From NCBI RefSeq assembly GCF_058153355.1, contig NZ_CM177019.1: a DNA stretch of 64,000 bases; one strand, 5' to 3'. Each line of letters starts with the position of its first letter. Position 1 is the first letter of the stretch. A model generated the notes under the pieces. That model saw only the letters and a list, made by a program, of their open reading frames with translations, had not been told where the DNA came from and ran no database searches. Below, piece after piece: positions 11,659 through 11,900 of the stretch. The translations under genes and the position numbers were made by a program.

Positions 11659-11900
11659 ACAGATTCTTGAGCCATTCGTAGACCGGATAAGGCGTTCACG
11701 CCGCATCCGGCAATCGTGACAAATGCCTGATGCGCTACGCTTATCAGGCCTACAGATTCTTGCGCCACTCGTAGGCCGGATAAGGCGTTCACGCCGCATC
11801 CGGCAATCGTGACAAATGCCTGATGCGCTACGCTTATCAGGCCTACAGATTCTTGCGCCACTCGTAGGCCGGATAAGGCGTTCACGCCGCATCCGGCAGA
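11659..11900. repeat. BIME/REP array (about 2.5 tandem copies of a roughly 98-bp unit)
   Basis: Unit gccggataaggcgttcacgccgcatccggcaatcgtgacaaatgcctgatgcgctacgcttatcaggcctacagattcttgcgccactcgtag repeats with a period near 98-99 bp; contains paired palindromic REPs. Explains the repetitive antisense ORFs 11284..12000 and 11427..11942. Confidence 0.85.

Follow-up and report, generated by a model that had tools for sequence, protein, structure and literature searches.

The question raised by this locus is whether an IS621 copy lying in one unit of a REP array has further units beside it that are equivalent targets, and whether such units are in fact used by IS621. The window (the whole stretch of contig NZ_CM177019.1 that was analysed, 64 kb in length) carries such a copy between yahG and yahI, and a preliminary description of it had claimed that at least two more units of the adjoining array hold the exact sequence that was interrupted, giving several equivalent insertion sites within 250 bp. 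In our assessment it is very probable that this is a REP/BIME array with IS621 in its first Z-REP, and that the other two Z-REPs are potential sites for further insertion. The targeting of REPs by the IS621 bridge RNA and the tandem and polymorphic nature of BIMEs are already known biology, and what is added here is the observation that IS621 has used separate units of the same array from one strain to another, and neighbouring units in other arrays.

The REP array between yahG and yahI

The interval is bounded by two genes of one operon, both on the - strand. The downstream gene is yahI (9351..10301), of the carbamate kinase family, and the upstream gene is yahG (11921..13360), of the AllG/YlbE family, each identified by its ORF, by Pfam (AA_kinase and PF06545 respectively) and by the annotation in matching E. 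coli records. Flanked by the yahG stop (11921) and the yahI start (10301), the array is extragenic, and its position between two operon genes of the same orientation is typical of BIMEs. Tandem Repeats Finder gives a single array in the interval, at 11657-11898 with no strand assigned, having a period of 93 bp, 2.6 copies and 97% matches.

Z-type REPs were identified with the 29-nt query GCCTGATGCGCTACGCTTATCAGGCCTAC, with which one of the REP queries of Durrant et al. begins, and Y-type REPs with TGCCGGATGCGGCGTAAACGCCTTATCCGGCCTAC, also one of theirs, and for both queries the number of matches expected by chance is zero. There are three Z-type REPs on the + strand, with 0, 0 and 2 mismatches, the last being the one cut by the insertion, and three Y-type REPs on the - strand, with 1, 1 and 2 mismatches. 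Z-type REP no. 1 (10352..10378) is cut short by IS621 and the host flank reads ...GCCTGATGCGCTACGCTTATCAGGCCT, its last 9 nt (10370-10378, ATCAGGC plus CT) being the left half of the target and the core. The right half of the occupied target, ACAGATTCTTG, is found across the IS621 junction at 11659..11669 on the + strand. It is followed by Y-type REP no. 1 (11678..11712), Z-type REP no. 2 (11725..11753), Y-type REP no. 2 (11771..11805), Z-type REP no. 3 (11818..11846) and Y-type REP no. 3 (11864..11898). Each Y-REP is an imperfect palindrome with inverted-repeat arms that are 85-86% complementary, and the alternation of Z-REPs (+) with Y-REPs (-) gives a tandem mosaic of regularly spaced REPs, which is how BIMEs are defined in PMC2817692.

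Two units also exceed the gathering score of 59.5 bits for naRNA4 of Rfam (RF02564), a family of nucleoid-associated RNA derived from another BIME, their own scores being 74.9 and 68.8 bits. The naRNA4/REP325 repeats have the same Y-plus-Z architecture but are at a different locus, and the match in the window covers 70 nt against the 77 positions of the model, the Z unit of this array being a short form that falls 7 nt below the span of the model. The naRNA4 match reflects similarity within the repeat family, and we do not take it to imply an naRNA from the window array.

The matches to the Z and Y queries, the palindromes, the 93-bp period and the naRNA4 score all bear out the earlier description of the repeats as a BIME made of REP units. 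The 240 bp in question are the REP/BIME array of the yahG-yahI interval, which is polymorphic and built from tandem 93-bp units, each with one Z-REP (+) and one Y-REP (-). In K-12 the locus of this array is named REP23, and it overlaps the disputed gene yahH. The REP23/'yahH' BIME of K-12 and O157:H7 agrees with that of the window in locus, in flanking genes, in having a unit of Z-REP plus Y-REP that is 93 bp long (92 bp in some variants) and in the stop-free frame that gives the YahH repeat peptide. It differs in the number of Z-REP units, which is three in the window, counting the one that IS621 splits, against 4 in K-12-type strains, 5 in O157:H7 and 0-2 in other strains.

The IS621 copy and its junctions

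The element (10379..11658, + strand) is a 1,280-bp variant of IS621 that terminates in a second copy of the CT core at 11657-11658. At the DNA level it shares 97.6% identity with the canonical 1,279-bp IS621, with 32 differences (2.4% divergence), and 99.6% with a 1,280-bp copy in strain 2017-02-2CC. Matches of at least 99% to the 1,280-bp variant are found in only about 5 complete genomes.

The recombinase gene (10571..11551, + strand) encodes a protein of 326 aa, of which 322 are identical to those of the published IS621 protein (99% identity). It retains the DEDD residues D11, E60, D102 and D105 together with S241, and contains both Pfam domains, PF01548 (E = 1.8e-24) and PF02371 (E = 3.9e-26). 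The bridge RNA gene, at the left end of the element (10393..10570, + strand), contains two target guides, the left one, ATCGGGCCT, at 10442-10450 and the right one, GTAG, at 10470-10473. This 178-nt segment differs from the published 177-nt RNA in three places, at 10452, at 10457 and by an inserted base at 10459, all of which fall between the two guides and leave them as published. The segment folds with z = -4.5, well under shuffled controls. The stem-loop between the target guides in the 1,280-bp variant carries G>A, C>T and an added C, and it is in these three changes, including the 1-nt insertion, that the bridge RNA of the window copy departs from that of canonical IS621.

With regard to the junctions, the CT core is present at both (10377-10378 and 11657-11658), as in the published IS621 (PMC11208160, PMC11208158), with which the window copy also shares the left and right target guides and the 11-mer target ATCAGGCCTAC inside a Z-type REP. 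The left flank ATCAGGCCT ends at 10378 and the right flank ACAGATTCTTG begins at 11659, and when the element and one CT are removed the two join as ATCAGGCCT|ACAGATTCTTG to give the 20-mer ATCAGGCCTACAGATTCTTG, the same as is found in the intact units 2 and 3. The flanks ATCAGGCCT and CTAC match the guides of the bridge RNA at the left end. According to Hiraizumi et al. (2024; PMC11208158) the top strand is cleaved between T9 and A10, right after the CT core, and the IS621 junction in the window coincides with that point. The earlier identification of the element thus holds for the recombinase, the Pfam domains and the guides, and as judged from its sequence the element is IS621 with ORF, guides and ends intact.

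The natural target of IS621 was given as ATCAGGCCTAC by Durrant et al. (2024; PMC11208160), in whose account the A at position 4, which departs from the guide-encoded ATCGGGCCTAC, is accommodated by rG:dT pairing. Their wild-type target oligo includes ATCAGGCCTACAGAT, which agrees with the array sites over 15 nt, and in their genome-wide insertion assay in BL21 129 of the 173 sites were ATCAGGCCTAC and 144 of 173 were within REPs. Insertion of IS621 into REP sequences was reported by Choi et al. (2003), as cited in PMC11208160.

The insertion in the window can be accounted for as follows. Every Z-REP ends in ATCAGGC-CT-AC, which is the 11 nt recognised by the IS621 bridge RNA, the left target guide pairing with ATCAGGCCT, with a G:T wobble at position 4, and the right guide with CTAC. 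The recombinase cuts after the CT core, and the IS621 variant entered the first Z-REP. Z-REPs 2 and 3, being tandem-duplicate copies of the same unit, present the same guide-matched target.

Intact targets in the neighbouring units

The 20-mer ATCAGGCCTACAGATTCTTG is intact twice on the + strand of the 64-kb window, at 11743-11762 and 11836-11855, and there is no further copy in the window with up to three mismatches, 0.02 being expected by chance. There are thus two further units with the exact sequence that IS621 interrupted, as had been claimed, and the positions proposed for them, about 11745-11765 and 11843-11863, were in error by 2 and 7 nt. Perfect ATCAGGCCTAC sites are found in the window only in units 2 and 3, at 11743-11753 and 11836-11846. 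The two intact targets are located 85 and 178 bp to the right of the right end of IS621, in the same orientation, and the occupied site and the two intact units are identical over about 39 nt, of which the bridge RNA reads 11-14 nt. That the sites are identical is due to duplication of the unit, and not to any IS-related function.

From the sequence and the guide pairing we infer that units 2 and 3 would be equally open to insertion in the window strain, although local DNA structure or BIME-bound proteins could make the units unequal. The 3' flank of the array sites is AGA, without the GCA flank that marked 4 of the 10 most-used insertion sites in PMC11208160, and the array sites are therefore ordinary rather than preferred targets.

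The Y-REPs add two weaker sites to the two perfect ones. Y-type REPs no. 2 and no. 3 carry ATCCGGCCTAC on the - strand (11771-11781 and 11864-11874 respectively), a position-4 variant that has one mismatch to the IS621 target and lies in the opposite orientation, while Y-type REP no. 1 carries ATCCGGTCTAC, with 2 mismatches. ATCCGGCCTAC is found at 1 of 72 metagenome junctions, which indicates occasional natural occupancy, and a published target collection for the same guide class also holds occupied ATCCGGCCTAC examples. The claim of several equivalent sites is therefore good for the two perfect sites, and has to be qualified for the other two, which are one-mismatch sites in Y-REPs on the opposite strand.

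Variation in the array among E. coli genomes

For comparison of strains, REP-free flank queries were run against 5,426 complete E. coli genomes. Units were counted from interval lengths in a systematic sample of 58 genomes, with every length class confirmed by reading one or more representative records (L008, L006/L007, L004, L005/L088, L003/L087 and L089). The number of target-bearing units at yahG-yahI ranges from 0 to 5 per genome, with none in 6 of the 58 genomes, one in about 20, two in 1, three in 3, four in 21 and five in 7.

The closest relative of the window array is in strain N96, with 99.3% identity over the 400 nt flanking the array. IS621 is absent from the N96 array, in which one of the four units carries a mutated target (ATCAGACCTAC). 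N96 came from a Tibetan pig. The window strain itself is absent from the 5,426 complete E. coli genomes, in which the best identity is 97.3% over hyxB-ykgH (window 30001-33000) and 97.6% over the reconstructed empty site. Values of 97.3-97.6% raised the possibility of an Escherichia other than E. coli as the source of the window, which we did not favour in view of the 99.3% identity to N96 beside the array.

Two other forms of the interval may be mentioned. L008 (NZ_CP065203.1) has no BIME at yahI-yahG and in its place an unrelated 98-bp spacer with a GC-rich hairpin, GCCCTTCTCCC...GGGAGAAGG; this BIME-free class accounts for about 10% of the sampled genomes. In the K-12 MG1655 record NZ_CP010443.1 the yahI-yahG span is 728, against 821 in most sampled records (e.g. 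strain 9FA), and this 93-bp shortening, which is known from length only, suggests either that a laboratory lineage has lost one BIME unit or that the assembly is collapsed there.

Open reading frames over the array

Two long ORFs run over the array on the - strand, and had been dismissed as antisense artefacts. The first (11427..11942, 171 aa) is in the 'yahH' frame and extends from the array into IS621 antisense sequence, and the second (11284..12000, 238 aa) is in another stop-free frame and also crosses the IS boundary. On the - strand the 93-bp unit has two frames out of three free of stops, and since 93 bp is 31 codons these ORFs remain open at any number of units. Both cross 11658/11659 into IS621 antisense sequence and so must owe their present form to the insertion. 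With regard to the earlier claim, both ORFs do exist and both are made by the repeat, but they share their strand with the yahG-yahI operon and are antisense only to IS621.

The alternative is that the repeats are primarily protein-coding, as yahH, with real ORFs and a resemblance to REPs and IS621 targets that is secondary. The ORF at 11427..11942 does share the 31-aa repeat VNALSGLRVAQESVGLISVAHQAFVTIAGCG with the YahH annotated in K-12-type genomes, 'protein YahH' is still annotated by RefSeq in many genomes, and translation of yahH has been argued once, from ribosome-profiling footprints over yahH/X002 in EHEC (PMC4765031). However, ORF length tracks unit number, which varies from 0 to 5 in the sampled genomes with no conservation of frame or length, and some strains, such as L008, lack the array altogether. 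The open frames follow automatically from a 31-codon unit with two stop-free frames, both window ORFs span a boundary that the insertion created, neither ORF has a Pfam match, and the curated K-12 annotation has removed yahH as a REP element. We consider a primarily coding role very unlikely. That the array ORFs are artefacts is the better-supported view, although not a unanimous one.

The yahH of K-12-type genomes (L003 1699-2019) is a translation of the BIME, with a length that follows the number of units, and RefSeq labels it 'protein YahH' or 'hypothetical protein', with lengths that depend on the strain.

We suggest that in annotation the stretch be described as a REP23-like REP/BIME array with an IS621 insertion and two intact guide-matched targets, and that the overlapping array ORFs not be called as ordinary genes.

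Use of the array by IS621

IS621 is present at yahG-yahI in about 30 (29-30) of the 5,426 complete genomes. In about 25 of these the array consists of one unit and that unit is filled (e.g. L082). In EC9, for which the sequence was read, IS621 is in unit 3 of 4 with intact targets on either side, and the same position is indicated for EC10, E189 and ECN24 by junction spans that match those of EC9. Neither the arrangement of the window, with IS621 in unit 1 of 3, nor a window-type array with IS621 in unit 2 or 3 was found among the 5,426 complete genomes. The occupied units differ between the window, the single-unit genomes and those of the EC9 type, which implies at least three independent insertion events at the locus. 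Comparison of occupancy REP by REP across strains thus shows a different unit filled in EC9, EC10, E189 and ECN24, and EC9 in particular demonstrates that units other than the first are used by IS621 in nature. The locus illustrates how tandem duplication of a BIME multiplies the target of the IS621 bridge RNA, and how lineages use alternative units of one array.

Natural junctions elsewhere are also largely in REPs. A metagenome scan for the left end of IS621 gave the 72 junctions referred to above, with 36 distinct left flanks, most of them Z-REP-like, and 47 of the 72 end in ATCAGGCCT, so that IS621 is not confined elsewhere to sequence unrelated to that of the array. The yahG-yahI locus is not among these 72 left-end junctions, and a metagenome scan for the right end of IS621 fused to the array flank (GCCATAACAGTATCTACAGATTCT) gave no match. 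The 33-nt left end of IS621 had no match in contigs representing one genome per species, hence no copies in other Escherichia species were seen.

It can be argued that the extra sites, while identical in sequence, are biologically irrelevant, as each genome has more than 100 REP targets and the array is a single one of them, with no preferential use. Full-length IS621 is present in 1,635 of the 5,426 genomes, the median number of matching places in a positive genome being 5, and the array is occupied in about 30 of these 1,635, or about 2%, with 1-5 sites per locus. The published assay used 129 ATCAGGCCTAC sites in one genome (PMC11208160), 31 of the 58 sampled genomes have 3-5 units and no IS621 in any of them, and, as noted, the locus is absent from the metagenome junctions. 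On average a site is occupied at a level of a few percent (about 5 copies over about 130 usable sites per genome), and on this rough comparison there is no sign of enrichment, so that the yahG-yahI array does not appear to be a hotspot. On the other side, alternative units of this same array have been filled in nature and tandem double occupancy is found in other BIMEs. We put the chances of irrelevance at about even; it qualifies our main explanation, that the remaining Z-REPs are potential sites, and is not really incompatible with it.

Isolated matches of 66-78 nt (92-97% identity) to the left end of IS621 are found at unannotated places in many genomes without full-length IS621 (e.g. ST131), and could be solo left-end remnants or the end of a related element.

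Occupancy of neighbouring units

Tandem copies were sought in the complete E. coli genomes with a query in which the right end of IS621 is joined to the left end, for copies up to 650 bp apart. Two direct copies close together are found in 5 genomes, with gaps of 93, 100, 100, 202 and about 578 bp. The gap of 93 bp is that of SCZE5, where the copies fill adjacent units of the prpB-prpC BIME and two further empty sites lie alongside. The yaiL-fghA BIME of AR_0128 has its two copies 100 bp apart, and the span in AR_0119 is identical. The gap of 202 bp belongs to 23CRST029, where one empty site separates the copies in the mhpT-mhpE BIME. These three arrays were inspected, and in them the filled units are adjacent or next but one, while the case of about 578 bp (H168) is known by its span only. 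Multi-unit BIMEs are thus shown to become multiply occupied, though rarely, and neighbouring units can both be filled.

These cases bear on the possibility that a resident IS621 shields its neighbours, by target immunity or by structural occlusion, and that units 2 and 3 of the window array are in consequence unavailable. The window and most of the occupied genomes do have a single filled unit per array. However, the five genomes with two direct copies at such short distances and the three inspected arrays speak against shielding, and PMC11208160 and PMC11208158 describe no immunity mechanism for IS110-family elements. Shielding in either form is extremely unlikely in our view. With regard to target immunity around a resident IS621, we reject it on the double-occupancy cases, which argue against it.

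Strain 2017-02-2CC, which has the 1,280-bp variant, repeats the situation of the window, since the element fills a single unit of the eco-mqo BIME and two identical intact sites adjoin it.

Rearrangements at arrays with IS621

A more far-reaching proposal is that tandem BIMEs act as landing pads with several slots, in which copies of IS621 build up next to one another as in the five genomes described above, and that the resulting direct IS repeats, 93-202 bp apart, drive loss and gain of units and rearrangements bounded by the IS, and so contribute to the polymorphism of 0-5 units. We think this possible but unlikely. If it were true, copy-number polymorphism of the REP23 type would not come from replication slippage or unequal crossing-over alone, and the yahI-IS-codA and prpB-IS-yahG junctions of strain M23314 would be an example of an IS-bounded rearrangement. 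For the present the locus matters little beyond annotation, but it is relevant to the use of IS621 occupancy as a strain marker and to studies of IS-driven rearrangements.

The junctions in M23314 are as follows. One (NZ_CP133916.1 325728-331026) reads yahI, Z-REP unit 1, IS621 and the codA flank, and the second (336506-342064), about 10 kb away and on the opposite strand, reads prpB REP, IS621, the right flank of unit 3 and yahG. In ECN24 the left and right yahG-yahI junctions are likewise on opposite strands. The junctions in both strains are consistent with inversions between IS621 copies in different BIMEs.
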